Source: an uncultured Trueperaceae bacterium
Lineage (GTDB): Bacteria; Deinococcota; Deinococci; Deinococcales; Trueperaceae
Assembly (NCBI GenBank): GCA_963727505.1
Contig: CAVSGP010000010.1
Span: forward strand, 1-64,000
DNA length: 64,000 bases
Direction of reading: 5' to 3'
Below are positions 28,444 to 60,051 of this stretch, piece after piece. The position numbers were made by a program, and so were the translations under genes. The first letter of the stretch is position 1; each line of letters begins with the position of its first letter. The notes beneath the pieces were generated by a model. That model was not told the origin of the DNA, searched no databases, and saw nothing but the letters and a program-made list of their open reading frames with translations.

Positions 28444-28486
28444 GGGACGTTCTTCCCTTCGGCGCTCCGGGCGTTTACCGTAGCGT
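28444..28486 (+). promoter_or_regulatory. GGGAC-N4-GTCCC-type box plus -10 element
   Basis: GGGACGTTCTTCCC (one mismatch), 23 nt, TAGCGT. Confidence 0.5.
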
Positions 28487-28527
28487 CGGAGCCGGAGAAC
28501 GGCCGGAGAGGTCGGGTCGGGAGCATC

Positions 28528-29805
28528 ATGCGCATCGTCACCGCAGAACAGGCCGTCGAGGTCGTCCACTCGCGCGACCGCGTGTTCGTCCACAGCGTGG
28601 CCGCCGCCCCGCAGCGCCTGCTCGCGGCGCTCACGGCTCGCTGGCGCGAGTTGCAGGGCGTCGAGATGATCCACCTGCACACCGAGGGACCCGCACCCTA
28701 CGCCGACGCGGCGTACGCCAGGAGCTTCCACACCAGCGCGCTGTTCGTCGGACCCAACGTACGAGCGGCGGTCGAGCAGGGACAGGCGGACTACATCCCC
28801 ATCTTCCTGAGCGAGGTGCCGGACCTGTTCCGCAGCGGCGCCATGCCGCTCGACGTGGCACTGGTGCAGGTCTCGCCGCCGGACCGTCACGGCTACTGCT
28901 CGCTCGGCGTGTCCGTCGACGCCACCCGAGCCGCCGTGCACGCGGCCCGAACGGTGGTCGCGCAGGTCAACCCGAACATGCCCCGCACGCACGGCGACGG
29001 CCTGCTGCACGTCTCGAACATCGACCTGGCGGTGGACGTGGACGATCCCATCCCCGAGGTGCCCCCCGCTCCGGCGGGCCCGGAGGCGCGCGCCATCGGC
29101 CTCCACTGCGCCGCCCTGATCGAGGACGGCGCCACCCTGCAGATGGGCATCGGCGCCATCCCCGACGCGGTGCTGGCCTCCCTCGGCGACCACCGCGACC
29201 TCGGCATCCACACCGAGATGTTCTCCGACGGCGCCATCGACCTGATCGAGAGGGGCATCATCACCGGCGAACGGAAGGTCAGCCACCCCGGCAAGGTGGT
29301 CGCGAGCTTCGTGATGGGCACGCGCCGGCTCTACGACTTCGTCGACGACAACCCGCTGCTGGCGCTGCTCGATGCCGGCTACGTCAACGACACCGCCGTC
29401 ATCCGGCGCAACCCGCGGGTGACCGCCATCAACAGCGCCGTCGAGGTCGACCTCACGGGCCAGGTGTGCGCCGACTCCATCGGCACCCGTCAGTACTCCG
29501 GCGTCGGCGGCCAGATGGACTTCATACGCGGCGCCTCGCTCTCCGAGGGCGGCAAGCCGATCATCGCCCTGCCCTCGACCACCCACGACGGGGCGAGCCG
29601 GATCGTGCCGTTCCTGAAGCAGGGGGCGGGCGTGGTCACCACCCGCGCCCACGTCCACTTCGTGGTGACCGAGTACGGCGTGGCCAGCCTCTACGGCAAG
29701 GCGCTGCGCCAACGCGCGCGGGCGCTCATCGGCATCGCCCACCCCGACCATCGCGAGGCGCTGGAACGCGCGGCCTTCGAGCGCTTCCAGCGGATGCCCG
29801 CCTGA
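28528..29805 (+). CDS. Acetyl-CoA hydrolase / 4-hydroxybutyrate CoA-transferase family
   Basis: LQMGIGAIP, LGIHTEM, SGVGGQMDF, VVTEYG. Confidence 0.92.
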   Translation: MRIVTAEQAVEVVHSRDRVFVHSVAAAPQRLLAALTARWRELQGVEMIHLHTEGPAPYADAAYARSFHTSALFVGPNVRAAVEQGQADYIPIFLSEVPDLFRSGAMPLDVALVQVSPPDRHGYCSLGVSVDATRAAVHAARTVVAQVNPNMPRTHGDGLLHVSNIDLAVDVDDPIPEVPPAPAGPEARAIGLHCAALIEDGATLQMGIGAIPDAVLASLGDHRDLGIHTEMFSDGAIDLIERGIITGERKVSHPGKVVASFVMGTRRLYDFVDDNPLLALLDAGYVNDTAVIRRNPRVTAINSAVEVDLTGQVCADSIGTRQYSGVGGQMDFIRGASLSEGGKPIIALPSTTHDGASRIVPFLKQGAGVVTTRAHVHFVVTEYGVASLYGKALRQRARALIGIAHPDHREALERAAFERFQRMPA

Positions 29806-29905
29806 CGCCGCCGCCGAGACTGCCGCGGCGGCCGCCGCCGAAGCACAAGCGCGCGGCGCCCGCTGCCTCAGGCAGCGGGCGCCGCGATCCAGCCCTGAAG
29901 GCGAT

Positions 29906-30115
29906 TCAGGCGCGTTTACGTGGCTTCGTGCTGGCGCCGAACAGGGTGTACAGCGGGCAGAAGCCCACCGCCCCGGTGAGCAGCAGGATCGCTCCGACGA
30001 TGGCGAAGACAACCATCCATACGCCGGAGAGCCAACCGAACACCCACGCGGAGAGCAGAACGAGCCCGGCGATGACCCGGATGACCCGATCGGTAGTGCT
30101 TTCGTTGATCGTCAT
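29906..30115 (-). CDS. DUF2892 (YgaP-like) membrane protein
   Basis: NE.TTDR..R, GFCPLY.LFG.ST; RBS GAGGAGG. Confidence 0.88.
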   Translation of the reverse strand: MTINESTTDRVIRVIAGLVLLSAWVFGWLSGVWMVVFAIVGAILLLTGAVGFCPLYTLFGASTKPRKRA

Positions 30116-30182
30116 GGCCTTGCCTCCTCGGACTGCAGCATAGCGCACTATTGGCGCCATAGGAATGGTAGAAATAGGAACA

Positions 30183-30830
30183 ATGTCGAGCCGCGACGAA
30201 CTCCTGCGCCACCTCAAGATCCGCGGGCCCAGCACCGTCCGCCAGCTCGCCGAGGCCACCGGCCTGTCCGACAACGCGGTGCGCCACCACCTGGCGCGGC
30301 TGCGCCAGCAGGGCTTCGTCGACGAGCACGCCCTGCGCGAGGGGGTGGGCCGGCCGGCGCACCGCTACGCCCTCACCGCTCAGGCCGAAGGCGCCTTCCC
30401 CAAGCGCTACGTCGACCTGCTGGAGGCCGTGCTCGAGAGCGCCGCCGCGCGGGGCCTGCTCGACACGCTGCTCGACGACGTGGCGGCCGCGCTCGCCGCG
30501 CGCGTCAAGGACGAGCTCGAGCCGCTCCCGCCGCGCGCACGGCTGCTCAAGCTGATGCAGCAGCTCGACTACGGCGAGATGCTGGGGCGCCTCGCCAATA
30601 CGCCGGGAGGCTGGGAGTTCGAGGCCTACAACTGCGTCTACCGCGCCACCGGAGAACGCTTCGTCGGCGTCTGCGACCTGCTGCCGAAGGTCGTCGTGGA
30701 CGCCACCGGGATGGATGCAGAACGCGTGCGCTGCCAGCGCGACGGCAACCACACCTGCCACTTCGCAGGTAGCTACGGGACGAGCCCGAACGGGCAGCGC
30801 GACGGGGCGAGAGAGCGACGGCTCGTAGGG
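30183..30830 (+). CDS. Winged-helix regulator with Cys-rich C-terminus (SufR/COG2345-like); stop codon missing in this assembly, end approximate
   Basis: LS.NAVRHHL..L, GRP..RY.LT, YNC..C..C......C; runs in frame into the next gene. Confidence 0.75.
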
Positions 30831-30870
30831 CGACCGACCCGCACGAGGCACCGAGCCCGCCCGAGCGCCT

Positions 30871-30896
30871 GCATCCGGACGCCCTCCCCGTGCGTA
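30871..30896 (+). promoter_or_regulatory. Putative ECF-dependent promoter
   Basis: GCATCC-N16-CGTA, same as upstream of the ECF sigma gene. Confidence 0.55.
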
Positions 30897-30917
30897 GGGG
30901 TGGATGGAGGTACTCCC

Positions 30918-31745
30918 ATGCACGTAAGGCAGGCGCTCGTCCACAAGCGACAGGCTCGGCACCGGCGCACCCTTGGGAAGTGGGCCCCGGCAGGTCCGCT
31001 CGCCACCCGCATGCTCGCCGCCCTCGCGCTCACCGCCCTCGCACTGGGCGGCGCCGCGTTGGCGCAGGCGGTGAGCCCGACCGTCCAGGTCCGCTACGAC
31101 GCCAAGCTGGGCTACTTCCTGACCGACGCCCAGGGCATGACGCTGTACCTCTATGCCAAGGACACCCCCGGCAAGAGCGCCTGCAACGGCGCCTGCGCTC
31201 AGGCCTGGCCGCCGCTGCTGGCCGACAGCGCCACCGTTGCGCCGCTGAACCTGCCGGGCGCGTTCAGCGTCGTCACCCGCGATGACGGCAGCAAGCAGAT
31301 CGCCTACCACGGCCTCCCCCTGTACACCTGGCAGGGCGACAAGAAGCCCGGCGACACCAGCGGCCAGGCCTTCAAGGACGTCTGGTGGGTGGCCAACCTC
31401 GAGCCCGCGGTGCAGACGCTGGCGACCGCCAACGGCACCCTGCTGGTCGGCCCGACCGGCATGACGCTCTACACCTTCGGCAAGGACGGCCCCAACCAGT
31501 CCGCGTGCAGCGGGACCTGCGCCGCCAACTGGCCGCCGCTGGTCGGCGGCTACGACGTCGCCCACGGCAACGCGCCCACAGCCGGCAACGGCGTCAAGGG
31601 AACGCTCGGCGTCATCGCGCGCCCGGACGGTTCCAGCCAGCTGACGCTGGACGGCAAGCCGCTGTACTACTTCCGCGGCGACCGCTCCCCCGGCCAGGCG
31701 ACCGGCGACGGCCTTCTCGGCGAGTGGGCGAAGGTCACGCAATGA
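30918..31745 (+). CDS. Secreted COG4315 (Lipoprotein_15 repeat) protein
   Basis: Own RBS GGAGG; signal peptide; two GMTLY..KD...S.C...CA..WPPL / DG..Q....G.PLY modules. Confidence 0.85.
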   Translation: MHVRQALVHKRQARHRRTLGKWAPAGPLATRMLAALALTALALGGAALAQAVSPTVQVRYDAKLGYFLTDAQGMTLYLYAKDTPGKSACNGACAQAWPPLLADSATVAPLNLPGAFSVVTRDDGSKQIAYHGLPLYTWQGDKKPGDTSGQAFKDVWWVANLEPAVQTLATANGTLLVGPTGMTLYTFGKDGPNQSACSGTCAANWPPLVGGYDVAHGNAPTAGNGVKGTLGVIARPDGSSQLTLDGKPLYYFRGDRSPGQATGDGLLGEWAKVTQ

Positions 31746-31929
31746 CCGCCAGCGCCTCCCGGACGCAGGCGCGGGCGCACCCCTAGACCCATCCTCCGGA
31801 GGCCCTGGGCAGGCCTCCATCAACTCGGCGAGGACCGCATCCACCCCCGGGCATGCGGTCCTCGGTTCTTCCTGGCCCGAGCCAGGCGGGCCGTCCGGTC
31901 GGGCCGTCCGGTCGGGCCGTCCGCTGCGC

Positions 31930-33252
31930 TCAGGCCGACGCTTCGCGTCCGCGGAACATCAGCGGCACCGCCGGGATGCCCAGCAGGGCTACCAGCGCGG
32001 CGACCAGGAAGGCGCGCTCGAGCCCGGCGCCGTCGGCGAGCAGGCCGATGGTGTAGATGCCGGCGGCGCGCACCAGGAAGTTCATCGCCAGGAAGGTGCC
32101 GTTGGCGAGCGCCCGGTTCTCCGGGAAGGCGTCCTGGACCGTGGCCAGCAGGACCGGCGTCCCGCTCACCGCCGACAGGCCGAGCAGGATCAGCAGCGGG
32201 AACGCCAGCGCCGTCGGCGCGTAGAGGAACGCGATCATCACCAGCGGCGCGGAGATGGCCAGGGTGAGCAGCACGCTCCCGCGACCCAGGCGGTCGGACA
32301 CGGTGCCGGCCGACAGCGCGCCGACCACGCCCGCAGCCTCCAGGATGGTGAGCGAGGCCCCGGCGAGCCACAGACCGGTACCCATCACGTCCTTCATGAA
32401 CAGCGGCAGGTAGATGGTGGCCGCCACCAGTAGCATCACGCGGGTCGCGATCAGCAACCCGATCGCCGGGAACACCCGCCGCGCCGTGGACCACGGCAGG
32501 AAGCCCGATCGACCGCCGGCGCCCTGCGCCGAGACATTGCGCAGCCGGAAGTAGAGGATCACGCTGACTGCCCAGCCGATGAAGGCGAGCCGCCACAGCC
32601 CTTCCAGGCCGAACCAGCCGACCGCCGCCACCGCCAACAGCGGGCCCAGCGAGCGCCCGAGCTCACCGCCGGCCATGAAGATGCTCATGCCGGCACCGAC
32701 CCGACGCCCGGACACGTGCGCCACCATCGCCGGGGCGGGCGAGTGGAACGACGCCACGCTGACGCCCGCGGCCAGCAGCAAGAACACGATGGAGAGGTAG
32801 TTCGGCGCGCGTCCCAGCAGGGTGATGAACGTCGCCGTCACGGCCGGCGCCAGGATCACGAAGTAGCGCAGGCTGACCTTGTCGGCCATGTAGCCGATGA
32901 CCGGGTTGAGCAGGCTGGGGAGCTGCAGGAAGACGGCCAGGCCGCCGGTCATGGTGTAGTCGGTGTTGAGCTTCTGCTGCAGGACCGGGAGCAGCGGCGC
33001 CACGAAGGCCGTGAAGCTGTCGTGCGCGAAGTGCCCGCCGGCGATGGTGGCGACGTCGGCCGTGTGGAAGCGCTCGTCGAAGGGCGCAGCGACCCCGGCC
33101 TCGCCGGACCGTGACGCGGCGCCGGCCGCTCCGGCGACAGCACCGGGCGCAGCACCGGGCGCAGCACCGGGCGCAGCCTCGGCCGCGGCGTCGGACGCCG
33201 CCGGCCCGGCTACGCCGCCGACGGGTGCCTGGTGGACGTCGTCTCGATCCAT
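31930..33252 (-). CDS. MFS transporter (Fsr-like)
   Basis: GHFAHD, FHSPAP, GMSIFMAGGELG, SDRLGR. Confidence 0.88.
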   Translation of the reverse strand: MDRDDVHQAPVGGVAGPAASDAAAEAAPGAAPGAAPGAVAGAAGAASRSGEAGVAAPFDERFHTADVATIAGGHFAHDSFTAFVAPLLPVLQQKLNTDYTMTGGLAVFLQLPSLLNPVIGYMADKVSLRYFVILAPAVTATFITLLGRAPNYLSIVFLLLAAGVSVASFHSPAPAMVAHVSGRRVGAGMSIFMAGGELGRSLGPLLAVAAVGWFGLEGLWRLAFIGWAVSVILYFRLRNVSAQGAGGRSGFLPWSTARRVFPAIGLLIATRVMLLVAATIYLPLFMKDVMGTGLWLAGASLTILEAAGVVGALSAGTVSDRLGRGSVLLTLAISAPLVMIAFLYAPTALAFPLLILLGLSAVSGTPVLLATVQDAFPENRALANGTFLAMNFLVRAAGIYTIGLLADGAGLERAFLVAALVALLGIPAVPLMFRGREASA

Positions 33253-33429
33253 GCGGACCAGCATAGCCCGCGTTCCCCGCGCGGCGAGACTTCCGGGCGG
33301 CGCGTACCGCGGCACTCGACGGCACGCGGGACGCAGCGCCGGGTGCAGGCGGGGCAGAGCCGGGGCGGAGCCGGGCGCAGAGCCGGGCGCAGAGCCCGGT
33401 ACAGGTCCTCGTGCGGGGCCGGGCAGCGC

Positions 33430-34449
33430 TCAGCGGCTGACCAGCAGCAGGAAGCGGTCCATCCAGCGGTCGGGCAGGAAGCGCGTCAGCACGCCCACCA
33501 CGTGCGCGTCCAGCCCCACCCGATAACGCGTGCGCGCGCGCGGCGCGGTGAGCGCGTGCAGCACCGCACGCGCCACGCCGTCGGGCGCGATGCCGCCCGC
33601 ATCGACGTCGGTCACGCCGCGGGAGATGGAGCGGATGGCGGCCTCGTAGAGCTCCCCCGCCGCTTCGGGCATGCGCGAAAGGCGCGCCTCGCCGGCGCCC
33701 TTCGTCTTGCCCCAGATGGGGGTGCGCACGCGGCCGGGCTCCACGATCGAGACCTGCAGGCCCCAGGGACTGAGCTCGAGCCGGTAGACGTCGCCGAGCG
33801 CCTCGATGGCGAACTTGGACGCCGCGTAGGCGCCCAGCAGCCGCGACGACACCAGCCCGGAGATGGATCCGACGAACACCACGCGACCGTGGCTTCCTCG
33901 GACCGGCGAGCGGCCGGCGCCCAGCGACCCGTCGATGCCGGCCGGAGCGGTCGATGCCCGCACCCCGAAGGCGCGGCGCTGCCCTTCCGCCGCCAGCTGG
34001 ACCTCACGCGCCCGCCGCAGCATCGGCAGCATCGCCTGCGTCACCGCGACCTGGCCGAGCACGTTGACCTCGAGCTGAAGCCGCAGGTCCTCGAGCGGCA
34101 GGAACTCCATGGGCCCCGCCACGACCATGCCGGCGTTGTTCACCACGCCGTGCAGGCCGCGCGCGCCGGTGCGCTCGTCGACGACGGCGGCCGCCCGCGC
34201 GATGCCCTCGGCGTCGGTGATGTCGAACAGCAGCGGCGTGATGCTACCGGTGGCGTCGTCCGGGGCTGCGTCCCGGCGCGCCTCCCGGCCTTCCTGCTCC
34301 AAGCACGCGGCGGACTCCTCGCGCCGCACGCCCGCGAAGACCTCGAAGCCGCGGCGAGCGAGCAGACCGGCGACCGCGCGACCGATCCCGGTCGACGCGC
34401 CGGTCACCAGAACGGCTGGCGGCGTGTCCCCCTCCGAAGCGACATGCAC
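33430..34449 (-). CDS. Short-chain dehydrogenase/reductase
   Basis: TGASTGIG, NNAG, YAASK; TAAGAT -10 just upstream (leaderless). Confidence 0.92.
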   Translation of the reverse strand: MHVASEGDTPPAVLVTGASTGIGRAVAGLLARRGFEVFAGVRREESAACLEQEGREARRDAAPDDATGSITPLLFDITDAEGIARAAAVVDERTGARGLHGVVNNAGMVVAGPMEFLPLEDLRLQLEVNVLGQVAVTQAMLPMLRRAREVQLAAEGQRRAFGVRASTAPAGIDGSLGAGRSPVRGSHGRVVFVGSISGLVSSRLLGAYAASKFAIEALGDVYRLELSPWGLQVSIVEPGRVRTPIWGKTKGAGEARLSRMPEAAGELYEAAIRSISRGVTDVDAGGIAPDGVARAVLHALTAPRARTRYRVGLDAHVVGVLTRFLPDRWMDRFLLLVSR

Positions 34450-34517
34450 GCAGCCATCTTAACGGTGTCGGGTCGGCGACGTTCTCCGGGCCCGCGATCG
34501 CGCGGGGGATCTCCTCC

Positions 34518-34552
34518 CAAAACGCAACCCGCGGGGAGGATTCCCCGCGGGT
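34518..34552 (-). terminator. Intrinsic terminator
   Basis: ACCCGCGGGGA-4-TCCCCGCGGGT followed by TGCGTTTT on the minus strand. Confidence 0.7.
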
Positions 34553-34745
34553 CACCGGCCGAAGGCCGTGAAGGAGAGAGTTGTGCTTCCGGAGCCCCAA
34601 CGCCGGGACGGTCCCGGCTACAGCACGTTCACCCTAACTCGTTTGCCTCATTTGAGGCCCGGAAGCACGTGCACCGGCGTCTCGGCGCCATTTCAGTCCT
34701 TGTCGGTCTCGTGGAGCGGCCTACTCAGCGCCTGCCCACCGGTGC
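34518..34745 (-). ncRNA. Unidentified structured RNA, about 230 nt
   Basis: Own -10 (TAGCAT), two long stem-closed domains, small hairpin, 11-bp terminator hairpin with U-tract; no convincing long ORF. Confidence 0.65.
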
Positions 34746-34751
34746 AACGTA

Positions 34752-34794
34752 ATGCTAGGCGGCCGCATTGTCCGGTGACAGGGACACATGTCCT
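34752..34794 (-). promoter_or_regulatory. GGGAC-N4-GTCCC-type box plus -10 element
   Basis: AGGACATGTGTCCC, 23 nt, TAGCAT on the minus strand. Confidence 0.6.
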
Positions 34795-34842
34795 GCTGCA
34801 CCCGGGACGGCCGGCACCGGGCCGGCTTGCGCTCGGTCCGGA

Positions 34843-34912
34843 GCGCTCAGCTCGGGGCGCTCAGCTCGCGGCGCTCAGCTCGCGGCGCTCAGCTCGGGGC
34901 GCTCAGCTCGCG
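34843..34912. repeat. 14-bp tandem repeat x5 (GCGCTCAGCTCGSG)
   Basis: Seen directly; the last unit contains the thioesterase stop codon. Confidence 0.9.
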
Positions 34913-35343
34913 GGCGCCGACCCCGCCAACAGCGTGGACCGTACGGCGTCCGGCACCGGCACGGGCCGTTGCGCGTCGTAGTCGAACCAGACCACCACCG
35001 ATTCGATGGTGGCCGCCCGTACCCCGTCGGCCCGCACCTCCTGGTGCAGGGCGATGCTGCTGCGCCCGATGCGCGCCACCTCGGTGGCGAGCACCACCCG
35101 GCTGCCCAGACGCACCTGGGCGTGGAAGTCGATGGCGATGCGCGCCAGGATGGGGCCGCCGCCGTCCCAGCTCACACGCCGCATCAGGGCGATGCGGCCG
35201 AGCTCGGCGTAGCTGGAGTACGCCGCGTTGTTGACGTGCCCAAGCGCATCGGTATCGCCGAAGCGCACCTGGATCTCGAGTTCGTGTGGGCCCGGCGCGG
35301 CGACGTCGGGGGTGTGGCTGGCGGCGGGATCCTCCGGGGTCAT
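34903..35343 (-). CDS. Acyl-CoA thioesterase (4HBT/FcbC family)
   Basis: VRFGDTDALGHVNNAAY. Confidence 0.9.
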   Translation of the reverse strand: MTPEDPAASHTPDVAAPGPHELEIQVRFGDTDALGHVNNAAYSSYAELGRIALMRRVSWDGGGPILARIAIDFHAQVRLGSRVVLATEVARIGRSSIALHQEVRADGVRAATIESVVVWFDYDAQRPVPVPDAVRSTLLAGSAPAS

Positions 35344-35526
35344 CAGGCAGGCTCCTCCCGAAATGGGGTGGCCTCGGCGGACGGCGCCGCGGCGGACGTC
35401 AGCCTACCGCGCGCCGCGCCGGTACACGGCGCGCGCGGGGCGCCGTCCGTGTGGTGGCGGGCGCGGCACTCTGAGCGCTATCGTGGACGCACAGTACGCA
35501 CCCATTTGCCCGCGATGGAGGGCAAC

Positions 35527-37922
35527 ATGCGGTTTCTGCGTGGTCTGCTCGTGCTCGTGTTGGTGGCCGCATCGGCCACGGCCTGCGCACCCGGTGTGGA
35601 CGTGGGTTCCGTGCGTCTGCCCAGCGACGTTCCCGGCACCCTGTCCGATGCCGACGCCGTCCTGCTCGACCCGGTCGGCGCTCTCGTGGGGCGCGACCCG
35701 CCCCTGAGCACCGACATCTACGACGCCACCTTCGACGCGCCCGAGCTCGACGGCTACACGCCCACCACGCCGGTGCCCTTGGAGGCGATGCCCCGCGCCT
35801 TCGACGGCAGCTACTACCTGGCGCCCGGCGACTACGAGATCACGGCCTGGGGGTTCTGCGCTCACGCCGGCACCTACGAGCCCGCCGTGGGGGGGCCGGG
35901 ATACGTCTATGCGCCGCTGAAGGGCTCGCTCGCGGATGTCATGACGCGCCTGCTCGAGGCCTCCTACCGCCACCCGGAGGTGTCGCAACGGTCCATCCAG
36001 GTCCTGTTGTGGGCCATCCTCGCGCGCACGCCGCTCCCCGACATGCCGCCCGAGTTGCAGGACACCTGCGCGGCGCCTGCTCGACGCCGACGACCTCGCG
36101 CGCCTGCGTGCGAACACCCCCAACGACGTCGGTCGAACCCTGTTCGAGCGCGCCCTGCAGCAACTACCTCCCGAGCTCCGCGAGGTGGCCCGCGCCGAGG
36201 ACCGCATCCGCACGCTGCTCCGCGGCGACAGCGTCGCCTACGCGGCGCTCGAGCGAGCCGCCGTCCTCACGGGCAACCCACCTCCGGGCCTGACCGTGCG
36301 CGCCATCCCCCAGGGCCGGTGGTCACACCACCCCGACGGCTACGACATCCGATACGCGCCCTCCGGGTACTCGGTGGTGCGCATCCAGATCCACGTGCCC
36401 GGGGCCGTCGGCGCCCGGCCCGACCCGGGCGTGATCAGCGCCCAGGGCTCGAGCGGCTCCCAGGGCGGTGACGGCATGGTCAACGCCGACGTGAGCGACG
36501 GCGCGGCGCTGTCCGGCAACACCTCCCGGCAGCGGCTCCTGAGCAACGGCACGAGCGCCGACGACAACGTCCTCGAACGGGCCAAGGACGCGGTCGGGTG
36601 GATGAAGCTCTTCGCCAACCTGCTGCCGTTCTTCGGTGGCCAGAGCCTCGAGCAGGGGGCGGTCCAGGGCTTCTCGGAACTCACCGCGGGAGCCTCGATG
36701 CTCTCCCCCGCAGCGATGGCGGGGTACCTGCTGGACTTCATCTTCAGCGCCGGCGCCGACATCATCAACGCCACCGCCGGCTACGAGGGGGGCGGGACAG
36801 GGGGCGGGGCAGGGTCCGACAACCGGGGCCCGCCATCGACGGGTGGCTCCTCCTCGGCGGGCTCCAGCGGCTCCCCGACGTGGAACGCGCACCCAGGATC
36901 GTCCGGCGGGTCCGGTGCGGGCGACAGCGGGACGGCCGGCGGAACGAGCAGCGGTACGAGCAGCGGCACGAGCAGCGGCACGAGCGGCTACCAGGACGGT
37001 AGCAGCGGGCAGCGGCGGCACCAGCGGCGGCACCAGCGGCGCCGGCGACACCAGCACCGGCACCGGCACCGGCACCGCCGGCGATACGACCGGGGACACC
37101 GGCACCAGCGGCGACACCAGTGGCGAAACGACCGGCGAAACGACCGGCGACACGACCGGCGACACGAGCAGCGGCGCGTCCGATGCCGGCGGCACCGGGA
37201 CGAGCGAGGCCGGGGCGAGCGAGACCGGGACGAGCGAGACCGGGGCGAGCGAGACCGGCACCGACGCGAGCGGCACCAGCGCCGGCGGCGGCACCACCGA
37301 CAGCACCAACGACGGCACGACCGACGGCACGACCACCGCCCCGGGCGGCGCCAGTAGCGGCGCCGGCACGAGCGGCTCCGGCGGCGCGCTGACCTTCCCC
37401 GAGGGCCTCCCCGACGACCTGCGGCGGGTGATCGAGTACCTCGTGACCACGGCCGGCGAGCTGTTGCGCGACCTGCAGCTCTACCAGGACTCCGCCGTGC
37501 GGCTCGACAGCGTCAGTCACGGTGACGCCGACGCGGGGTACGCGCTGGCCGCGCAGACGCTCGAACGCAAACGCAGCGCCGGAGTCTCCATGTTGCGCAC
37601 CTCGGCTGCGCTCGACCACCTCGGAGCCGTGCTCGATGCGCATCACCTGGGCAGTATCCCGCTCGGGGCGGACGCGGTGCGGGCCTTCCAACAACGGCTG
37701 CGGGACGAGGGCGTCCCCGAGGCACTGCGCGCGGAGCTGCGTCGCGCGGGCATGACCGACGCCGACATCGATCGATTGGCCCGGCGCTACCTGGAGCTCG
37801 ACGCCGACGAGGTTGCGGCCGGCTTCCGGCGCTCCCTGACCCGCACGGCCGCCGCCCTGCGCTCGCTGGGCACGATCTGGGCCGGCCTGCCCTCGATCCT
37901 GGCCGGCGGCACGGTCCACTGA
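35527..37922 (+). CDS. Large lipoprotein: putative thioester domain, Gly/Thr/Ser-rich linker, helical C-domain (frameshifts ~36070 and ~37010)
   Basis: Lipobox ATAC; GFC, IQVLLW and RQRLL motifs; coding-like sequence continues across three frames. Confidence 0.65.
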
Positions 37923-37965
37923 CCGGCGCGCGCGTCAGTCGGGGGCACGCGGTGCGCGGGCCGCC

Positions 37966-38787: not shown

Positions 38788-38817
38788 GGTTGCATTTCGC
38801 TCGCGTGAACGGCGCGC

Positions 38818-39519: not shown

Positions 39520-39595
39520 GGCACCGCGAGCATAGCGCGTGTCGCCGCCGGTGCCGCAGCGCCACCGGACAGCCGGCGCGCGGGACGACGGTCCG

Positions 39596-40573
<978 letters not shown>

Positions 40574-47179: not shown

Positions 47180-47388
47180 GCCGGATCGAGGCGTCGCCCG
47201 CTGCGGGCGGCGGCACATGCGTCGATCCACTCCATCTCGACCTCGTTGTTGAGCGAACTCGTCGAAGTTGGGCGTTTGTCCGTTGATGGTTGCTCGAAAC
47301 CGCTCCTATGATGGAAGGGCACATCAACCGAACCGGGGCTCCGCCCCGACCCTTGCACACCTGGACACGGAAGGATCAGGGGGTACGC

Positions 47389-48624: not shown

Positions 48625-48656
48625 GCGCGCCAACGTCGTAGCCTGATCGCAAGTGC

Positions 48657-48694: not shown

Positions 48695-48713
48695 AGTCAG
48701 GAGAGGACCCCCG

Positions 48714-49619: not shown

Positions 49620-49674
49620 GCGGCGCGCGGCACCGGCGAGCGTTCCGGGCCAGGCCGGCCGTGGGAGCGCTGCC

Positions 49675-50502: not shown

Positions 50503-50611
50503 GACGAGCCTCCCGCTTCGGGCTCCGTAGCGCGATCCCGGACCCGCCGATAACGCTCCAGTAACGCCGTATTGCCTAGCCTCCTTCCGTAAGGAAGGAA
50601 AGGAGAGGCCC

Positions 50612-53236: not shown

Positions 53237-53432
53237 CCTCCGCGCGTCCGCTGGCTCCATCCGAGAGCTAGGTCTCGTACCCTTCCTGCCTCCCCCCCGC
53301 GCCGGCTTCCCAACCGGCGCGGGGCCCTCCTTGGGATCTCCCGCGATACCCACCACGCGGGGCGACCGGGGCGGCGGCCTCGGGCCGGTGGGGTCAGGCC
53401 GGTGGGGTCGGGTCGCTGCTAGACTTCGCCTC

Positions 53433-54231
53433 ATGGGCCGTCCGAACGAGCACGCCATGATCGAGGCCAACCGCGCCTCCTGGGAAGCGTCGGCGAAGCT
53501 CCACGAGCGCAGCCAACTGCCACGGCTGCTCGAGGGCTTCCGCGGCCCCGGCTTCTCCACGCTCGACGAGGTGGAACGCGGGATCTACGCGTCGATCGGC
53601 GTGGAGGGCAAGCGCGCGCTGCAGGTGTGCTGCAACAACGGCCGCGAGCTACTGTCGGTGGTGCGTCTCGGCGCCGCGAGTGGCGTGGGGGTCGACCTGG
53701 CCGAGGGCAACCTCGCGCAGGCACGGCGTCTGGCACAGGCCGCGGGGTTGCACGAGCGGGTCCGGTTCGTCCAGGGCAACGCCCTGGAGCTGCCCGACGA
53801 GCTGGGGCCGGTTCGACCTCGCCTTCCTCACCGTCGGCGCGCTGGGATGGCTGCCCCGGCTGCAACCGCTGTTCGACGGGGTGGCGAGGCTCCTGACGGA
53901 CGGCGGGCACCTGTTCGTCTACGAGATGCACCCGCTCCTCGACATGTTCGAGCCGGACACCGGCACCACGGTCCGGCGCGACTACTTCTCGCGCGAGCCG
54001 GTGGCCGACGAGAGCGGCCCCGACTACTACGAACCCGACAAGGTGGTGGACGCCCCGTCGTACTGGTTCCACCACACCCTGGCCGACGTCATCGGGGGTT
54101 GTCTGGAGGCGGGGCTGGTCCTCGAGCGCTTCGAGGAGTACCCGCACGACGTCTCGATGGTCTACCGCGCCTTCGAGGACCTGCCGCTGCGGCCGCCGCT
54201 CAGCTACACGCTGGTGGCGCGCAAGGGGTAG
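53433..54231 (+). CDS. Class I SAM-dependent methyltransferase (frameshift ~53805)
   Basis: NRASW, LQVCCNNG, GVDL; FDL..GALGWLP, YEMHP in the second frame. Confidence 0.8.
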
Positions 54232-54243
54232 CGAGGTCCCGGG

Positions 54244-56127
54244 CTAGCGTCTCAGGAAGCGGAGCAGCTGCCGGATCTCCGGCAGCCCCAGGAGCGCGCC
54301 CACCAGAGCGTAGGCGCCCGCCACCACCGCCGTGCCCACACCCACCTGCGCCAGCGAGCCGAGCCAGCCGGCGGGCAGCGACACCGCCCGCAAGACCATC
54401 ACGGCGGCCACCGACGCCAGCAACCCCGCCAGCCACACCCGCGCCAGATAGCGCAGGTAGGCGCCGAGCGCGAAGTGCTCTCGCCCGTACACCAGGGCGG
54501 TGAGGACGCCGAGCTGGATCCAGGACGCGAGGACGGTCCCCCAGGAGAGACCGGCGATGCCGTAGGGCCGTACCAGCAGCACGTAGAGCGCTCCCTGCAG
54601 CACCAGGAAGGTCAGCACCAGCACCACCGGTGTCACGACGCGCTGGCGCACGTAGAAGACGCGCACCAGCAGGTTGAACATGCCGAGCGGGAACACGGCC
54701 AGCCCGAGCGGCGCGGTCGCCGCCATCGAGAGGGTGAGCCGGGCGGCATCGAGGCCGGGGCCGTAGAGGCTCTTCCAGTTGAAGATGACCTCCACCGCGG
54801 GCGTCGCCATGATCGTCAACGCCAGGCCGGCGGGCACCGTCAGGAAGGTGATGAAGCGCATGCCCTGCTCGAGGGTGTCGTTGAACTCGTGCGGATCGCG
54901 CACGGCGTTGTCGGCGAGGCGCGAGTAGTAGGCGAGCGCCGGCGAGATGCTGAACAGCCCGAGCGCCAGGCTGAGGAACAGGTCGGCGTTGTAGAAGGCG
55001 GTCTGGGCGCCGGCCGCGATGTTGGTGACGACGTTGGACGCCACCACGTTGAGCACCTGCCGGCCGCCGGTCGTGAAGGCGAACGGCAGCATCAGGAGCA
55101 CCACGCTTCCCACGGCGGGGTGCCATAGGCCGGCCAGGCGCGGAAGCAGCTTGAGGCGCACCAGCGCCGGGATCTGCACGACGAGCTGCGCCACGCCGCC
55201 GAGCACGTGGGCGACCGTCAACATGATCGCCTGCCCCGGGAAGAGCGCCATCAGCGCGACGGTCACGACGTTGAGCGCGACGGGCGCCCACGCCGGCGCC
55301 AGGAAGCGCTCCTCGGCCTGCAGGATGCCCATGGCCAGGGCCGAGAAGGAGATCGCCGGCAGGAACGGGAACACGATGCGCACCAGCTGGGCGGTGAGAG
55401 CGACATCGACGTTGGCGGGGTCGGCGATGAGCAGCCGCGCCAGCAGCGGCGCCGTGACGTACGCGAGCAGCATGAGCAGCCCGTTGACGAGCGTGAGCAG
55501 GCCCAGCAACGCACCCGACAGCCGGCGCTGCTCGGCCCGATCGAGCGTCGCGTAGACCGGGATGAACGAGTTGGTCAGCGCGCCCTCGGCGAGCAGCTCG
55601 CGGAACAGGTTGGGCACCTTGAAGGCGGTGATGAAGGCGTCGCTGATCTCCTTGCTGAACAGCGCGTTGAGCAGGGAGTTGCGCACCAGCCCGGTGACGC
55701 GGCTGGCGAGCGTGCCACCCATCATGACAAGGGCGCCGTGGGCTGACGAGCGCCGCTCGCGCGGCTGGGCGCCACCGCCGAACAGCGCGTCGTGGTCGGC
55801 GTCGTGCGCGGTGTCCGGGACGGTGCCAGGGTTGGCCGCGAGCGGGGCGGGCGGGTGCGCGCGGTCGGGCGTCGCGGGGGCGAGGGTTCCGGGGACCGCG
55901 GTTCCAGGGACCGCGGTTCCTGGGACCAGCGTCGCGGGGGCCAGCGTCGCGATGTCGTCGGGATCGAGGTCGATGTGGCGGCGCGAAGGCTCAGCGGGTG
56001 TGTTCTCGCCGGCGCGGTTCTCGCCGGAGTCGTTCTCGCGCCGGTCGTTCTCGCGCCGGTCGTTCTCGCGCCGGTCGTTCTCGCGCCGGTCGTTGTCGTC
56101 AGGAGCGCGCTCGCCCACGTCGGTCAT
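54244..56127 (-). CDS. murJ: Lipid II flippase with low-complexity N-terminal extension; start uncertain
   Basis: SRVTGLVR, AFKVPNLFRELLAEGAL..SFIP. Confidence 0.92.
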   Translation of the reverse strand: MTDVGERAPDDNDRRENDRRENDRRENDRRENDSGENRAGENTPAEPSRRHIDLDPDDIATLAPATLVPGTAVPGTAVPGTLAPATPDRAHPPAPLAANPGTVPDTAHDADHDALFGGGAQPRERRSSAHGALVMMGGTLASRVTGLVRNSLLNALFSKEISDAFITAFKVPNLFRELLAEGALTNSFIPVYATLDRAEQRRLSGALLGLLTLVNGLLMLLAYVTAPLLARLLIADPANVDVALTAQLVRIVFPFLPAISFSALAMGILQAEERFLAPAWAPVALNVVTVALMALFPGQAIMLTVAHVLGGVAQLVVQIPALVRLKLLPRLAGLWHPAVGSVVLLMLPFAFTTGGRQVLNVVASNVVTNIAAGAQTAFYNADLFLSLALGLFSISPALAYYSRLADNAVRDPHEFNDTLEQGMRFITFLTVPAGLALTIMATPAVEVIFNWKSLYGPGLDAARLTLSMAATAPLGLAVFPLGMFNLLVRVFYVRQRVVTPVVLVLTFLVLQGALYVLLVRPYGIAGLSWGTVLASWIQLGVLTALVYGREHFALGAYLRYLARVWLAGLLASVAAVMVLRAVSLPAGWLGSLAQVGVGTAVVAGAYALVGALLGLPEIRQLLRFLRR

Positions 56128-56197
56128 TGTCGCACGGGCGGCGTTCCGGAGCTCATGGGGTGGTGCGGGCGCCTGCGCCGGGCGCATCGGAGGACCC

Positions 56198-56279
56198 GAT
56201 GTTCAGGCTGGCTTTCGACGCAGAGTCGGGGCGGGAAGGGGGGGTGCGCGGACCCCCGGGGACCCAAGGTACAGCCCCG
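56198..56279 (-). repeat. Dispersed inverted-repeat element, copy 1
   Basis: Similar to copies at 56447, 61215 and 61401. Confidence 0.55.
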
Positions 56280-56446
56280 TGCTACATGTTCGAGTCCGGA
56301 GAGCCGGCCCCGCCGCCAACGCGCGTGCTGGCCGGCTCTCCTGGCCACCAACGCCACAGGGCCGGGCGCTGGCGAAAGCCACGTTTCCCCCGGCACCTGC
56401 GCAGCCCTGGGCTCGAACCGCGTGCCGGGCCGCCCCCGGCACGCGC

Positions 56447-56502
56447 CGTTCAACCGGCCTTTACCTTCGGAGGAGGGGGTTCGGGGACCCCCCTGCCCTC
56501 CC
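56447..56502 (+). repeat. Dispersed inverted-repeat element, copy 2
   Basis: CGTTCAACCGGCCTTTACCTTCGGAGGAGGGGG...CCCCCC. Confidence 0.6.
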
Positions 56503-56545
56503 GCGCGCGCCGCGATACGGGCGCCAGGACCCAGCGCCTGGGGGC

Positions 56546-56923
56546 TCAGTCCTGCAGTTGCTCGAACGCTTCCTTGGGGAAGACCTCGACGGCGGGCTGC
56601 ACCTGGGGATCGGGCGCGGGGCCGGTATCGGACCAGCCCTCGGACTCCAGCGTCTTCAGCGGGCGCACCGTCATGTCGTGCGTGCAGCGGATCTGGCAGG
56701 ACAGCCGGACCTGCCCGAGCAACTCCTTCTCCTGGAGCTTGTCGTGCTCGGCGCGGGTCATGACGCCGGGCTCGCCCCGGTCGAACACCACCCGGCAGGT
56801 GGTGCAGCGCGCCTTGCCGCCGCAGCGGTGTCCGATGTGCACGCCGGCCTGCTCGATGGCCAGCACCAGGCGCTTGCCTTCGTCGACCTCGATGGTCGTG
56901 TCGTGGACGGTGAGCTTGGGCAT
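56546..56923 (-). CDS. 2Fe-2S ferredoxin
   Basis: HRCGGKARCTTC...RLSCQ; RBS GAGGAGG. Confidence 0.9.
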   Translation of the reverse strand: MPKLTVHDTTIEVDEGKRLVLAIEQAGVHIGHRCGGKARCTTCRVVFDRGEPGVMTRAEHDKLQEKELLGQVRLSCQIRCTHDMTVRPLKTLESEGWSDTGPAPDPQVQPAVEVFPKEAFEQLQD

Positions 56924-56986
56924 CGATCCTCCTCGTGCCGGCCTGGCCGCCGGCCGCCCCAACCTAACGCGGGCGGGGCGCGCCTG

Positions 56987-58489
56987 TCACGCGGGATCGA
57001 GGCGGCCGGCCACCTCGCGCCCCACGGCGCGCGCGTCGTGTACGCAGTCGTTGAGTCCGATGCCGCGGTAGGCATTGCCGGTCAGCGCCAGACCGGGCAC
57101 CGACCCGGCGGCCTCGGTGGCGGCTTCCACCCGGTCGAGGTGGCCGAGGGTGTACTGCGGGATGCCGCGGCGCCAGCCCACCACATGCGCCATCGTCGGC
57201 TCGGCGGCGACGCCGAGGCTGGTGCGGAGGTCGGCGCGCACCGCGTCGATCGCCTCGTCCTCGTCGAGATCGAGGAAGCCGGGGTCGCGCATGCCGCCCG
57301 CCAGCGAGCGCAGCAGCACCATGCCCTCGGGAGCCTGGGGCGGGAACAGCGTCGACGTCCACAGCGAGCCGAGAATGCGCAACCCCTGCCCCGGGGGAAC
57401 CAGGAACCCGAAGCCGTCGAGGGGCCGGGGCACGGCGGAGCGCGGGAATCCCAGCGCCACCACCCGGATGCCCGCGTAGGGGATGGCCTCGAGCGGGCCC
57501 GCCGCGTCCGGCGCGACGCCCCGGAGCAGTTCGGCCGCAACGTACGCCGGCGTGGCGACGATGACGGCATCGGCCTCGACGATCCTGGGCACCGGCCCGC
57601 TACCGTCCCGACCCCGACCGTCACCACCCCGACCGTCACCACCCGACGTCACCACCCGCAACCGCCGCTCGCCGCCGCGCTCGATGGTCTCCACGCTCAC
57701 GCCGAGGGCCACGTCGCCGTGCGCGACGCCGCGCAGCGCTTCGGCCAGCGCCTGTGTGAGCCGCCCGGCTCCGCCGCGGCGGAAGCTCGTCAGCCGGCCG
57801 CCCGGCCCGGACGGTCCGCCCGCGACCCGTCCCCCGCTCTCGCCGCGCGCCTTCGCCGCCTTACGAGCGCGCTGCTGCGCGAGCATGCCGCGCACCAGCC
57901 CGCCGTGTTCGGCCTCCAGCCGGTGCATGCGCGGGAACAGCGCCTGCAGGCTCGACTGCCGGGCGTCCCCCGCCGACACGCCGGCGACCATCGGGGCCAC
58001 CATCACGTCAGCGAACTCGCGGCCCAGCCGGCGCGCGGCGAAGCCGTGCACGCTCTCCTCGCGGCGCGGGTCGGCGGCCGGCAGGAACGGCTCGAGCACC
58101 ATGCGCGCCTTGGCCAGCGGTGACAGCAGCGGCGAGCGCAGCAGCGCCCCTGCTCCCGTAGGCACCGGCACCAGCCGACCGCCGAAGAACAGGAAACGCT
58201 TGCCGGCGGCCTCGGAGGCCGGCAGCAACTCGTCGTGCAGCCCGAGCTCGAGGCTCAGGTTGTAGGCATCGGGGACGTTGGTGAGGAACCCGTTGGGCCC
58301 GCGATCGACCAGGAAGCCGTCGACGGCGTCGCTGGTGGCGGTGCCGCCGACGCGGTCCTCGCGCTCGAGCACCATCACCTCGACATCGGGCCGCTCCTGG
58401 CGCACCTGGAACGCGGCCGTGAGTCCGGAGATGCCACCCCCCACCACCACGACGCGCGGCCTCCCGGAGGCCGCTCCGCGGGTCGTCAT
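56987..58489 (-). CDS. hemY: FAD-dependent protoporphyrinogen/coproporphyrinogen oxidase (HemY family)
   Basis: GGGISGL, GPNGF, GFGFLVP, IPQY.LGH, GNAYRGIGLNDC. Confidence 0.9.
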   Translation of the reverse strand: MTTRGAASGRPRVVVVGGGISGLTAAFQVRQERPDVEVMVLEREDRVGGTATSDAVDGFLVDRGPNGFLTNVPDAYNLSLELGLHDELLPASEAAGKRFLFFGGRLVPVPTGAGALLRSPLLSPLAKARMVLEPFLPAADPRREESVHGFAARRLGREFADVMVAPMVAGVSAGDARQSSLQALFPRMHRLEAEHGGLVRGMLAQQRARKAAKARGESGGRVAGGPSGPGGRLTSFRRGGAGRLTQALAEALRGVAHGDVALGVSVETIERGGERRLRVVTSGGDGRGGDGRGRDGSGPVPRIVEADAVIVATPAYVAAELLRGVAPDAAGPLEAIPYAGIRVVALGFPRSAVPRPLDGFGFLVPPGQGLRILGSLWTSTLFPPQAPEGMVLLRSLAGGMRDPGFLDLDEDEAIDAVRADLRTSLGVAAEPTMAHVVGWRRGIPQYTLGHLDRVEAATEAAGSVPGLALTGNAYRGIGLNDCVHDARAVGREVAGRLDPA

Positions 58490-58490
58490 G

Positions 58491-60002
58491 TCACACGGTC
58501 CGCGAGAACGGCGACGGCCCTGTCGACTTCATCCGCAAGTAGCGGTCGAAGACCATGGCCACGTTGCGCGGCAGCAACTTGCCGAGCTCGGCCGCTTCGA
58601 TGCGGTCGGGACCGAAGCGGACCAGCCCCTCGTCGGCCAGCGGGACGAGCGCCTCCAGCTCGCGCGCGAAGTAACGGTCGAAAACGATGCCGTGGCGCGC
58701 CTCCAGGGCCCGCTTATCGATCCGGAAGTGGCACATCCAGTCGCGGATGAGCTGCTGGCGCACGCGGTCGTCCTCGTCGAGGCGGAAGCCGCGCGCCACC
58801 GGGAGGCGGCCGGAATCGACGACGTCCTCGTAGCGGTTCAGCTTCTTCTCGTTCTGCACGTAGGCGCCGCCCACCTCCCCGATGGCGGAGACGCCGAAGC
58901 CCACCATGTCGGGCGCGCGGGCCGTGGTGTAGCCCATGAAGTTGCGCCACAGGCGCCCGTCCTGTTGCGCGCGCACCAGCTCGTCGGTCGGCAGGGCGAA
59001 GTGGTCCATGCCGACGTCGACATAGCCGGCGCTCAGCAGGGACTCGCGCACCAGCTCCAGCAGGGCCAGCTTGGCCTCGCCACGCGGGATCGCCTCCTCG
59101 GGCAACGACCGCTGGTGGGCGTGCGTCTTGGGCAAGAAGGCGAACGAGTAGACGGCAAGCCGATCGGGCCGCAGCTCGAGCACCTGCGCCAGCGTCCGCG
59201 CCAGGCTCACCGGCGTCTGGTAGGGCAAGCCGTAGATGAGGTCGAAGTTGGTGGAGCCGTATCCCAGACGCCTGGCGGCGTCCGTCAGGTCGGCCGTGTG
59301 CTCGACGCTCTGCACCCGGCCGATGCTGCGCTGCACCTCGGGATCGAAGTCCTGGACACCCATCGAGAGACGGTTGAAGCCGAGCGCCCCGAGGCGCTCC
59401 AGGTGCTCCACCGAAGTGACGCGCGGGTCGACCTCGAGGGCGACCTCGGCCTCCGGCAGGATCCGGAAGTGCCGGCGGTAGTGCTCCATCAGCGCGGCCA
59501 GCGCGTCGGGATCGTAGTAGGTGGGCGTGCCCCCGCCGAGGTGGAACTGCGCCACGTCCCGGCGCTCGCCGAGCAGCGGCGCCACCGCGTCGATCTCGCG
59601 GTACAGGCGGTCCAGATAGGCGTCGGCGACGGCCAGGTGGGGCGTGATCACGACGTTGCAGGCGCAGTACAGGCAGCGCTCGGCACAGAAGGGAAGGTGG
59701 GTGTAGAGCGCCAGCGGGAGTTCGGGCGTCTGCGCGGCGCGGGCCAGGGCGGCGCGGTAGTCGTCCTCGCCGAAACCGTCGCTGAACTCGACCGCCGTCG
59801 GGTAGGAGGTGTAGCGCGGACCCGGCCGATCGAGCCGGCGGACGCGCTCGAGCAGGTGGGCGCGCTCGCTGGAGCGCGCGGCATCGTGCGCCGCGCCCAT
59901 CCCGACCCCCCGGTCGAACCGGTCGGAGCTGCCCTCGATCCCGCCTCCACGGCGTTCGCCGTCGTGCCAGGCGTCGTTGGGCGTGCGTTTCGGAGTCGTC
60001 AC
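58491..60002 (-). CDS. hemN: Oxygen-independent coproporphyrinogen III oxidase (radical SAM)
   Basis: GPRYTSYPT, HLPFC...CLYC.C, GMDHFA, RNFMGY. Confidence 0.94.
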   Translation of the reverse strand: MTTPKRTPNDAWHDGERRGGGIEGSSDRFDRGVGMGAAHDAARSSERAHLLERVRRLDRPGPRYTSYPTAVEFSDGFGEDDYRAALARAAQTPELPLALYTHLPFCAERCLYCACNVVITPHLAVADAYLDRLYREIDAVAPLLGERRDVAQFHLGGGTPTYYDPDALAALMEHYRRHFRILPEAEVALEVDPRVTSVEHLERLGALGFNRLSMGVQDFDPEVQRSIGRVQSVEHTADLTDAARRLGYGSTNFDLIYGLPYQTPVSLARTLAQVLELRPDRLAVYSFAFLPKTHAHQRSLPEEAIPRGEAKLALLELVRESLLSAGYVDVGMDHFALPTDELVRAQQDGRLWRNFMGYTTARAPDMVGFGVSAIGEVGGAYVQNEKKLNRYEDVVDSGRLPVARGFRLDEDDRVRQQLIRDWMCHFRIDKRALEARHGIVFDRYFARELEALVPLADEGLVRFGPDRIEAAELGKLLPRNVAMVFDRYLRMKSTGPSPFSRTV

Positions 60003-60008
60003 GGGCCC

Positions 60009-60051
60009 AGTCTAGGTGCGCCCCGGAGGGGGCCGTTGGGACAAATGTCCC
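60009..60051 (-). promoter_or_regulatory. GGGAC-N4-GTCCC box plus -10 element of hemN (leaderless)
   Basis: GGGACATTTGTCCC, 23 nt, TAGACT, 6 nt, GTG. Confidence 0.7.

Follow-up and report, generated by a model that had tools for sequence, protein, structure and literature searches.

The closest described counterpart of the system reported here is the mycobacterial hypoxia regulator DosR (DevR). In the available excerpts, DevR recognises the half-site G4G5G6A7C8T9, has its primary site at -42.5, and uses two to four tandem boxes at every promoter (PMC3177182), while DosR Lys179, Lys182, and Asn183 contact bases and the kinase DosS requires His149 for heme (PMC4082495). A palindrome with the same GGGAC half-site was analysed in a stretch of 64,000 nucleotides (hereafter the window; contig CAVSGP010000010.1 of assembly GCA_963727505.1, positions 1 to 64,000) from an uncultured Trueperaceae bacterium, whose placement in the Deinococcota by the initial annotation is correct. 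The palindrome, termed the box, precedes the oxygen-independent heme synthesis gene hemN, a structured noncoding RNA (ncRNA), and a CoA-transferase gene. From sequence comparison, the box likely marks a control system for low oxygen, with a two-component regulator that is similar to mycobacterial DosR but distinct from it. The regulon is real and conserved, and it is apparently undescribed: no description of the box in Deinococcota was found in the literature searched, which was mostly open-access and had curated regulon databases outside its scope. A DosR-like box is thus in use outside the Actinomycetota, apparently with a different sensor.

Other known systems share part of this arrangement. 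ResDE/SrrAB, RegBA (PrrBA), and ArcBA combine ctaA, terminal oxidases, the bc complex, heme synthesis, fermentation, and nitrite reduction in the target set of a single membrane kinase, and the predicted targets here follow the same logic. These systems use OmpR- or Fis-type regulators and other boxes, whereas the candidates here are a NarL-type regulator and a HisKA_3 kinase, the latter without a conserved regulatory cysteine in the sensor region. Class II promoters of FNR and CRP likewise carry a 14-bp palindrome near -41.5/-42.5 in place of the -35 element and have anaerobic targets such as hemN; their palindrome differs in sequence, and Thermus, according to the available excerpts, lacks FNR, its sole described oxygen sensor being DnrS on a mobile element (PMC5748679, PMC7694296). 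The same excerpts describe the DnrS/DnrT/NsrR system of Thermus, which resembles the present one in belonging to the same order, in its oxygen-linked control, and in activator sites near -43. It is encoded by mobile clusters and uses other sites (NsrR: CTTGACCNNGGTCATGG), whereas the box is chromosomal and lies at core respiratory genes. The box is also found before nitric oxide (NO)-reductase-like and nitrate-reductase clusters.

The genome under study (G000; 3.26 Mb, 70% GC) was gene-called in this analysis, which gave 2853 genes, 87% coding sequence, and an intergenic share of 12.7%. Relatives are labelled with G-numbers and grouped in families f1-f5. The exact palindrome GGGAC-N4-GTCCC occurs at 14 sites in G000, 12 of which are intergenic, and the other ten spacer lengths within N0-N10 yield 0-4 intergenic exact sites each. 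A matrix was iterated on intergenic sites outside the window and converged on 50 sites with the consensus GGGAC-R-W-W-Y-GTCCC; the intergenic excess of its matches, at about 50 intergenic sites, is partly circular, and the exact-palindrome count is not. The spacing from box to hexamer played no part in the training of the matrix. A TAnnnT hexamer is located 22-24 nt downstream of 17/48 strong intergenic sites, compared with 2.7% of 4125 random intergenic positions, and the other twenty 3-nt spacing bins contain 0-5 sites each. Genome-wide, the motif and its spacing lie above background. On these counts, the regulon is real and has a DosR-like core of 14 bp; the palindrome is likely the binding site of a transcription activator. 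Tandem boxes, defined as a partner with a score of at least 6 within 14-24 nt, are rare (6/48 sites). No partner of this score is present at the three window promoters, where the best value is 5.9, at the ncRNA; cryptic partners of low score may exist.

The coordinates of the window features and of the two candidate regulatory proteins are collected in Table 1. The three boxes, their 23-nt spacers, and the hexamers TAGACT, TAGCAT, and TAGCGT were confirmed in the sequence as first reported, and so was the lack of a consensus -35 element, the six bases after each box differing from TTGACA. The position given for the boxes, that of a class II activator, also holds: the centre lies at about -42.5, a value deduced from the -10 hexamer with unmapped start sites, and equals that of the DevR primary site at tgs1 in the available excerpt (PMC3177182). 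The window taken alone gives three matches with at most two mismatches against 1.05 expected, which is not significant (13/100 shuffles reach 3). When the window is scored with the matrix, for which it supplied no training sites, the three promoter sites come first, second, and third. The CoA-transferase site could be incidental when taken alone; a second copy of this gene on contig C3 retains the box, the 23-nt spacing, and TAGCGT. The CoA-transferase itself falls below every NCBIfam equivalog cut-off, including that of the nearest model, TIGR03948. The hemN mRNA, as read from the sequence, is likely leaderless, and the 6-nt gap between TAGACT and GTG recurs in the hemN orthologue loci listed. 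The HemY-type gene directly 3' of hemN likely belongs to the same operon.

Table 1. Positions of the boxes, promoters, and genes in the window and of the candidate regulator and kinase elsewhere in G000
Feature	Position	Strand	Details
hemN box GGGACATTTGTCCC	60038..60051	(-)	perfect palindromic core; matrix score 20.8
hemN -10 hexamer TAGACT	60009..60014	(-)	23 nt past box; GTG start after 6 nt more
hemN, oxygen-independent coproporphyrinogen III oxidase	58491..60002	(-)	TIGR00538 541.6 vs cut-off 325
Protoporphyrinogen oxidase, HemY-type	56987..58450	(-)	TIGR00562 above cut-off; gene call
ncRNA box AGGACATGTGTCCC	34781..34794	(-)	matrix score 17.6
ncRNA -10 hexamer TAGCAT	34752..34757	(-)	23 nt past box
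Structured ncRNA, ~225 nt (ends inferred)	34520..34745	(-)	z -4.06; 0/200 shuffles
CoA-transferase box GGGACGTTCTTCCC	28444..28457	(+)	weakest of three; matrix score 10.6
CoA-transferase -10 hexamer TAGCGT	28481..28486	(+)	23 nt past box
CoA-transferase, acetyl-CoA hydrolase/transferase family	28528..29805	(+)	PF02550 + PF13336
PucR-family regulator	26758..28392	(-)	divergent from CoA-transferase; local gene, not the proposed binder
Candidate regulator P0003, orphan NarL-family response regulator	G000:C4:759649-760311
Candidate kinase P0004, orphan membrane kinase	G000:C9:374938-376764		GAF-GAF-HisKA_3-HATPase

The predicted targets in G000 were read from chosen loci. A set of 239 proteins, drawn from the window and from the surroundings of loci with a box or a regulator, was annotated, followed by 68 and 30 more, and the resulting list was compared with no randomly annotated background. 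Boxes at a spacing of 23-25 nt precede genes for a ba3-type oxidase, the bc complex, a PhsA/Psr-like operon, the hydrogenase-maturation (hyp) operon, NirK (TIGR02376 above cut-off), and a type II dimethyl sulfoxide (DMSO)-reductase-family enzyme (TIGR03479 above cut-off). Further targets at this spacing are 2-oxoacid:ferredoxin oxidoreductase, PPDK, Pta, Pfk, class I aldolase, FTHFS, and citrate synthase, and the remaining ones are hemN-hemY, HPF, a P-type ATPase, a peroxiredoxin, and a DsrE-TusA operon. Other genes have a box that lacks the 23-25 nt spacing, namely caa3, ctaA-ctaB-SURF1, Acs, a universal stress protein (USP) gene, ferredoxin, transhydrogenase, SCO1/cupredoxin, and hemW. The list reads as a putative regulon for respiration and energy that leans strongly towards low oxygen. 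The low-oxygen regulon of the initial annotation fits many targets and is too narrow for others, since aerobic caa3, heme-A synthesis, the bc complex/ACIII, and NDH-2 are also included. Three of the box-driven promoters, those of the aldolase, the bc complex, and citrate synthase (G000:C2:220189-220490, C4:896001-896380, and C9:65652-65890), lie 270-400 nt upstream of the start codons, and the long leaders may hold RNAs or uncalled small genes.

Conservation was followed across the order. The box is found with a spacer of 22-24 nt at 9/14 hemN loci, the present one included, in three genera; one further locus has a weaker box without a -10 hexamer, and four have no box. This was the check on hemN orthologues that had been named at the outset, and together with the ncRNA promoter (see below) it upholds both genes as members of the regulon. 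Upstream of ctaA/ctaB, the best site reaches a shuffle p of at most 0.02 in 30/50 genomes (f1 17/32, f2 1/6, f3 6/6, and f4 6/6). Matches to box plus spacing amount to 72/80 in f1, 32/105 in f2, 3/12 in f3, 46/60 in f4, and 0/7 in f5; the f1 tally takes in the unpublished genome G271, on which alone no claim depends. Box and spacing are thus shown, at the level of sequence, to be conserved across four families of the order. In f3/f4, many boxes are located just 11-16 nt from the -10 hexamer or past it, positions that would fit repression.

The ba3 operon carries the box in 5/5 f4 genomes, with a 23-nt spacing in the three from Thermus. The ba3-promoter site recurs with this spacing in 26/30 genomes of genus g31 (Thermus; genus labels were derived from the names of protein clusters), the downstream gene having been checked in three only. 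The high-affinity, chromosomal ba3 oxidase of Thermus is induced at low oxygen, and no answer as to the switch that turns it on was found in the literature searched. In the passage available on the TTHB099 dataset, the ba3 genes are listed as changed and the box is unnamed (PMC7662524). The present analysis gives a precise site together with a named candidate regulator-kinase pair. An NO-reductase-like heme-copper operon in two Thermus genomes (L230, L231) has boxes in front of it, and about 900 nt further upstream two boxes stand in tandem, 15 nt apart.

The box pattern in Deinococcus is no commoner than the control. A variant site 23-24 nt before a -10 hexamer is present at the ctaA promoter in 13/61 Deinococcus genomes; ctaA was confirmed downstream in five of these, and the same divergent neighbour is present in three more. 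Further variant sites lie in front of the genes for a truncated globin and for an ABC binding protein. A shorter core pattern gave inconsistent results relative to the control in five Deinococcus/f5 genomes. The f5 oxidase promoters have a half-site only (GGGACAATTCTC), with a -10 hexamer at 24-25 nt in 2/4, which is a hint only. A GGGGACATTTAA stretch before the Deinococcus bc operon resembles a gene end and was excluded from the counts. In two Deinococcus genomes (L236:3016, L239:2993), a box-like site is located just past the -10 hexamer before an RNase Y-like N-terminus, a repressor-like position.

The ncRNA promoter is the best-conserved instance of the box architecture. The box, a spacer of 23 or 24 nt, and TAnnnT are present at 16/16 true homologue loci (some redundant), and the TA..nT columns of the -10 hexamer are invariant in 8/8 aligned sequences. 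The RNA is predicted to fold into three helical domains; a CU-rich stretch in it, CUCUCUCCUUCAC, is invariant, and a GC hairpin lies on the 3' side. Two-sided changes are seen at 9/57 consensus pairs among 19 partly redundant sequences. It occurs in 9/61 genomes, belonging to three Trueperaceae genera, with two copies in G000. Pattern searches of public collections returned 18 matches, 16 of which are true homologues, several redundant, and two of which are chance; two of the seven genome matches, in other phyla, were dropped as chance. No Rfam family matched the ncRNA at the gathering score, the matches being below threshold, and a strict scan for a sigma-70 promoter and a terminator over the region found none. 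The DosR-induced mycobacterial small RNA DrrS/MTS1338 also lies under a DosR-type box; the ncRNA differs in being longer and multi-domain, in having no Rfam match, and in its limitation to three Trueperaceae genera among those searched. An uncatalogued ncRNA is thereby placed inside the box regulon.

The block of PucR, CoA-transferase, MFS, SDR, ncRNA, and thioesterase genes is present twice in the genome, at window positions 26758-35343 and at G000:C3:26174-34791 (L026), with about 85% identity between the copies over the ncRNA region. G003:C2 shares a stretch of 311 nt with the window copy at 100% identity, an indication of recent transfer or of mixed binning. A short tandem repeat with a unit of about 14 nt (gagctgagcgccNc), in four to five copies, occupies 34850-34905, in the interval that separates the ncRNA promoter from the thioesterase gene.

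A search of G000 gave 14 LuxR-type helix-turn-helix (LuxR-HTH) and 5 HisKA_3 matches. The recognition helix of the orphan regulator P0003, EKTVRN, aligns with EKTVKN of DosR and provides K, R, and N at the places of DosR Lys179, Lys182, and Asn183. The regulator is proposed as the binder because, among the LuxR-type proteins of the genome, the base-reading pattern of DosR, K-x-x-[K/R]-N, is confined to it and one degenerate paralogue; its binding to the box is rated slightly better than an even chance. The helix is identical in 17/17 orthologues listed, across families. Overall the protein is closer to LiaR/VraR (E 1e-52), which are also its best PDB matches, than to DevR (4e-39). A motif-rich Thermus genome, G039 (16 matches vs 0 in the control), encodes only two LuxR-HTH proteins, the second of which was not found in motif-rich G005, G018, G027, and G028. 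Regulator and kinase are each present in 60/61 genomes and are both absent only from G011, where 9/11 near-consensus matches fall inside open reading frames, the count is near that of the control (11 vs 8), and no box is found at the caa3 promoter. A synteny check of the loss in G011 showed that the neighbouring peptidase was likewise not found. No paper describing the regulator, of which DR_0432 may be an orthologue, was found by locus tag. Another LuxR-type regulator, C9:669953, was rejected as the binder; it was not found in several motif-rich genomes.

The paralogue at G000:C5:102123-102827 (L058:6123-6824) has the same helix, carries a box upstream in 10/11 loci, and has a distribution (11/121) that covers the three genera of the ncRNA and no others. 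A paralogue with this helix is also encoded in G042 inside a nitrate-reductase cluster with five boxes. The paralogues at C5:102123-102827 and L171:7605-8255 have a degenerate receiver pocket and lie in box-controlled regions; they are possible feedback modulators. Two near-identical copies of the candidate regulator are encoded at separate loci of G042 (L161:4333-4980 and L162:4284-5123).

The orphan kinase P0004 was inferred to be the partner of the orphan regulator. Its predicted structure consists of a membrane hairpin, a long helix, two GAF-like domains, and a kinase core (predicted local distance difference test score, pLDDT, 78.5; predicted template modelling score, pTM, 0.44), and the first GAF domain is truncated in f3/f4. 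In an alignment of 43 orthologues, the sole invariant histidine is the phospho-acceptor H416, histidines of the sensor region reach at most 29/43, and the conservation of every cysteine in the first 430 residues stays below 40%. The kinase thus lacks a conserved sensor histidine, and it is not a DosS-type sensor, since DosS needs His149. No DosS-type heme-GAF kinase was therefore found, the candidate being a GAF-GAF kinase. No DosS GAF domain was among the matches listed in the structure and sequence searches, and a fold search gave generic GAF and kinase folds only. The sensor region has at least 66 homologous proteins, and the named ones among the matches listed are all from Deinococcota. 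The invariant residues of the membrane hairpin are P29, V36, F59, Y60, G64, P65, and W74. The kinase may sense an intramembrane signal such as the redox state of the quinones; the sole tool support for such a signal is an Atlas lead to the ArcB membrane domain at 0.89, below the 0.9 line.

The likeness to DosR/DevR comprises the GGGAC half-site, the 14-bp palindromic core, the primary site at -42.5, a NarL-family candidate with an EKTV[K/R]N helix, and a GAF-GAF-HisKA_3-HATPase candidate kinase. The DosR target list overlaps as well (USP, HPF, ferredoxin, Pfk, P-type ATPase, and a release-factor-like protein). The differences are that the sixth base of the half-site is A/G here and T in DevR, that the tandem boxes obligatory for DevR are rare, and that DosS is a soluble heme-GAF sensor, whereas the candidate kinase bears two membrane helices at its N-terminus and lacks a conserved heme histidine. 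Regulator and kinase are also unlinked orphans without box autoregulation, the regulon includes aerobic oxidase and heme-A genes, and the phylum is different. The initial description of a DosR-like regulon thus stands for the core, the position, and many low-oxygen targets. The system departs from DosRS in tandem architecture, heme-GAF sensor, and autoregulated operon, and so is not a member of that family.

In the proposed mechanism, an activator bound at the box would turn on genes for low-oxygen respiration, fermentation, heme supply, and dormancy. A dimer of the regulator at about -42.5 would substitute for the absent -35 element and recruit sigma-A polymerase by class II activation. Repression or tuning would be the role of boxes that overlap the -35/-10 region or come after it, examples being those at ctaA, at ACIII, and at other genes in Thermaceae-like genomes. 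The orphan kinase C9:374938 would phosphorylate the orphan regulator C4:759649, reading the state of the respiratory chain or membrane through its conserved two-helix hairpin and not O2 at a GAF heme; this reading by the hairpin is the weakest step and is put forward tentatively. The ncRNA would be an induced member of the regulon, possibly pairing with ribosome-binding sites through its CU-rich stretch. A wider picture, offered as a speculative possibility with less than even likelihood, is that of an ancestral chromosomal master switch for respiration and low oxygen in the Deinococcales, including Thermus thermophilus, which has no FNR. The orphan NarL-type regulator would have reached a DosR-like box independently, the lineage-specific membrane kinase would read the respiratory chain through an invariant intramembrane FYG-x-x-GP, and one Trueperaceae clade would have expanded the system to a dormancy-type regulon with its own small RNA and receiver-degenerate feedback paralogue.

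Several observations weigh against a low-oxygen regulon bound by the orphan regulator. About two-thirds of the strong sites in G000 lack the 22-24 nt spacing, several targets are aerobic or housekeeping genes (caa3, ctaAB, citrate synthase, hemW), and no strong box is present at the regulator or kinase gene. The recognition helix is not diagnostic, since Bacillus subtilis-type DegU shares EKTVKN in the alignment and recognises a different site. Without the regulator and kinase, G011 keeps a two-mismatch box, GGTACGATTGCCCC, before ctaA (score 12.4, p=0.007) and has one match to box plus spacing. Deinococcus and f5 carry the same regulator helix without a genome-wide motif excess, the strict test giving 0/6 and 0/6 genomes, and the box is found upstream of 0/5 HPF and 0/14 USP loci in these groups. 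The f5 and f2 tallies of box plus spacing are near the control level.

Chance matches in a 70% GC genome would account for the non-significant count within the window and the weak CoA-transferase site. For the motif as a whole, chance is refuted by the intergenic excess, the spacer peak, and the conservation across genera, and its probability is negligible. A signal other than oxygen or respiratory redox, acting through the proposed regulator or another one, would make this a regulon for heme/copper supply, energy limitation, or stationary phase. Three points suit such a signal: no target is better conserved across the order than heme-A synthesis (ctaA/B); the targets also include a truncated globin, an iron ABC binding protein, SCO1/cupredoxin, and hemW; and the kinase has no recognisable gas sensor. 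It is nonetheless considered distinctly improbable, as the class II sites of G000 belong predominantly to genes that are of use at low oxygen alone: HemN, NirK, the Phs/Psr-like and DMSO-family reductases, hydrogenase maturation, the ferredoxin-dependent oxidoreductase, Pta, and ba3.

The same regulon might instead be bound by an activator of the CRP/FNR family, an explanation regarded as unlikely. The CRP core GTGA-N6-TCAC and the FNR box share the 14-bp geometry of GGGA-N6-TCCC and act near -41.5 to -43, so that geometry and class II position are identical; GTGACA variants also occur among the box sites, G000 has at least ten CRP-type genes, and G011 retains the box without the NarL regulator. 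The sole CRP candidate profiled over all 61 genomes, C4:40607, was matched in 50/61; the motif-rich genomes G006 and G009 gave no match, and Deinococcus gave only weak ones. CRP-family members were listed in five genomes, and the clades common to G000 and three f3/f4 genomes presumably resemble SdrP/DdrI, a TTHA1437-type CRP, and a DnrT-like protein. The reported sites of such proteins are in part TGTGA-type. Neither TGTGA-N6-TCACA nor TTGAT-N4-ATCAA describes the box, for which the matrix gives GGGAC. In the available excerpts, Thermus DnrT acts at about -43, which favours a CRP-type binder, whereas the reported site of the shared clades, where not TGTGA-type, is the Pnrc sequence and not GGGAC (PMC7694296); Thermus is also without an FNR homologue in these sources (PMC5748679, PMC7694296).

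A third possible binder is the NreC-like regulator of a usp-usp-kinase-regulator cluster (G000:C4:904721-907551). The order of this cluster mimics Rv3134c-dosR-dosS, its short cytoplasmic kinase has three cysteines, with Cys residues in the N-terminal part, and it sits among box-bearing anaerobic operons and adjoins two USP genes. This regulator was rejected as very improbable: no orthologue is found among the two LuxR-HTH proteins of motif-rich G039, its helix reads EKTVAT, and its own promoter carries no GGGAC box and instead a different palindrome, YGTNGGR-N5-YCCNACR. The cluster most like dosRS by gene order is thus probably not the source of the binder, and the orphan regulator P0003 is retained as the candidate.

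The palindrome YGTNGGR-N5-YCCNACR occurs at six intergenic sites and one coding site in G000 and is probably the NreC-like regulator's own site. Its sites include C4:907660, C4:228869, and C5:101953 (L422-L430), at the promoters of the usp cluster, a CBS-type gene (labelled by its N-terminal sequence), and the regulator paralogue, where it is kept in 9/11 loci. Within the window, the fourth-ranked match to the box matrix is a weak site at 47269-47282 (score 9.9); a gene for a sugar ABC binding protein follows about 130 nt downstream. The gene call at 30183-31745 joins an ArsR-type helix-turn-helix to four Lipoprotein_15 repeats and may represent two genes or an unusual fusion.

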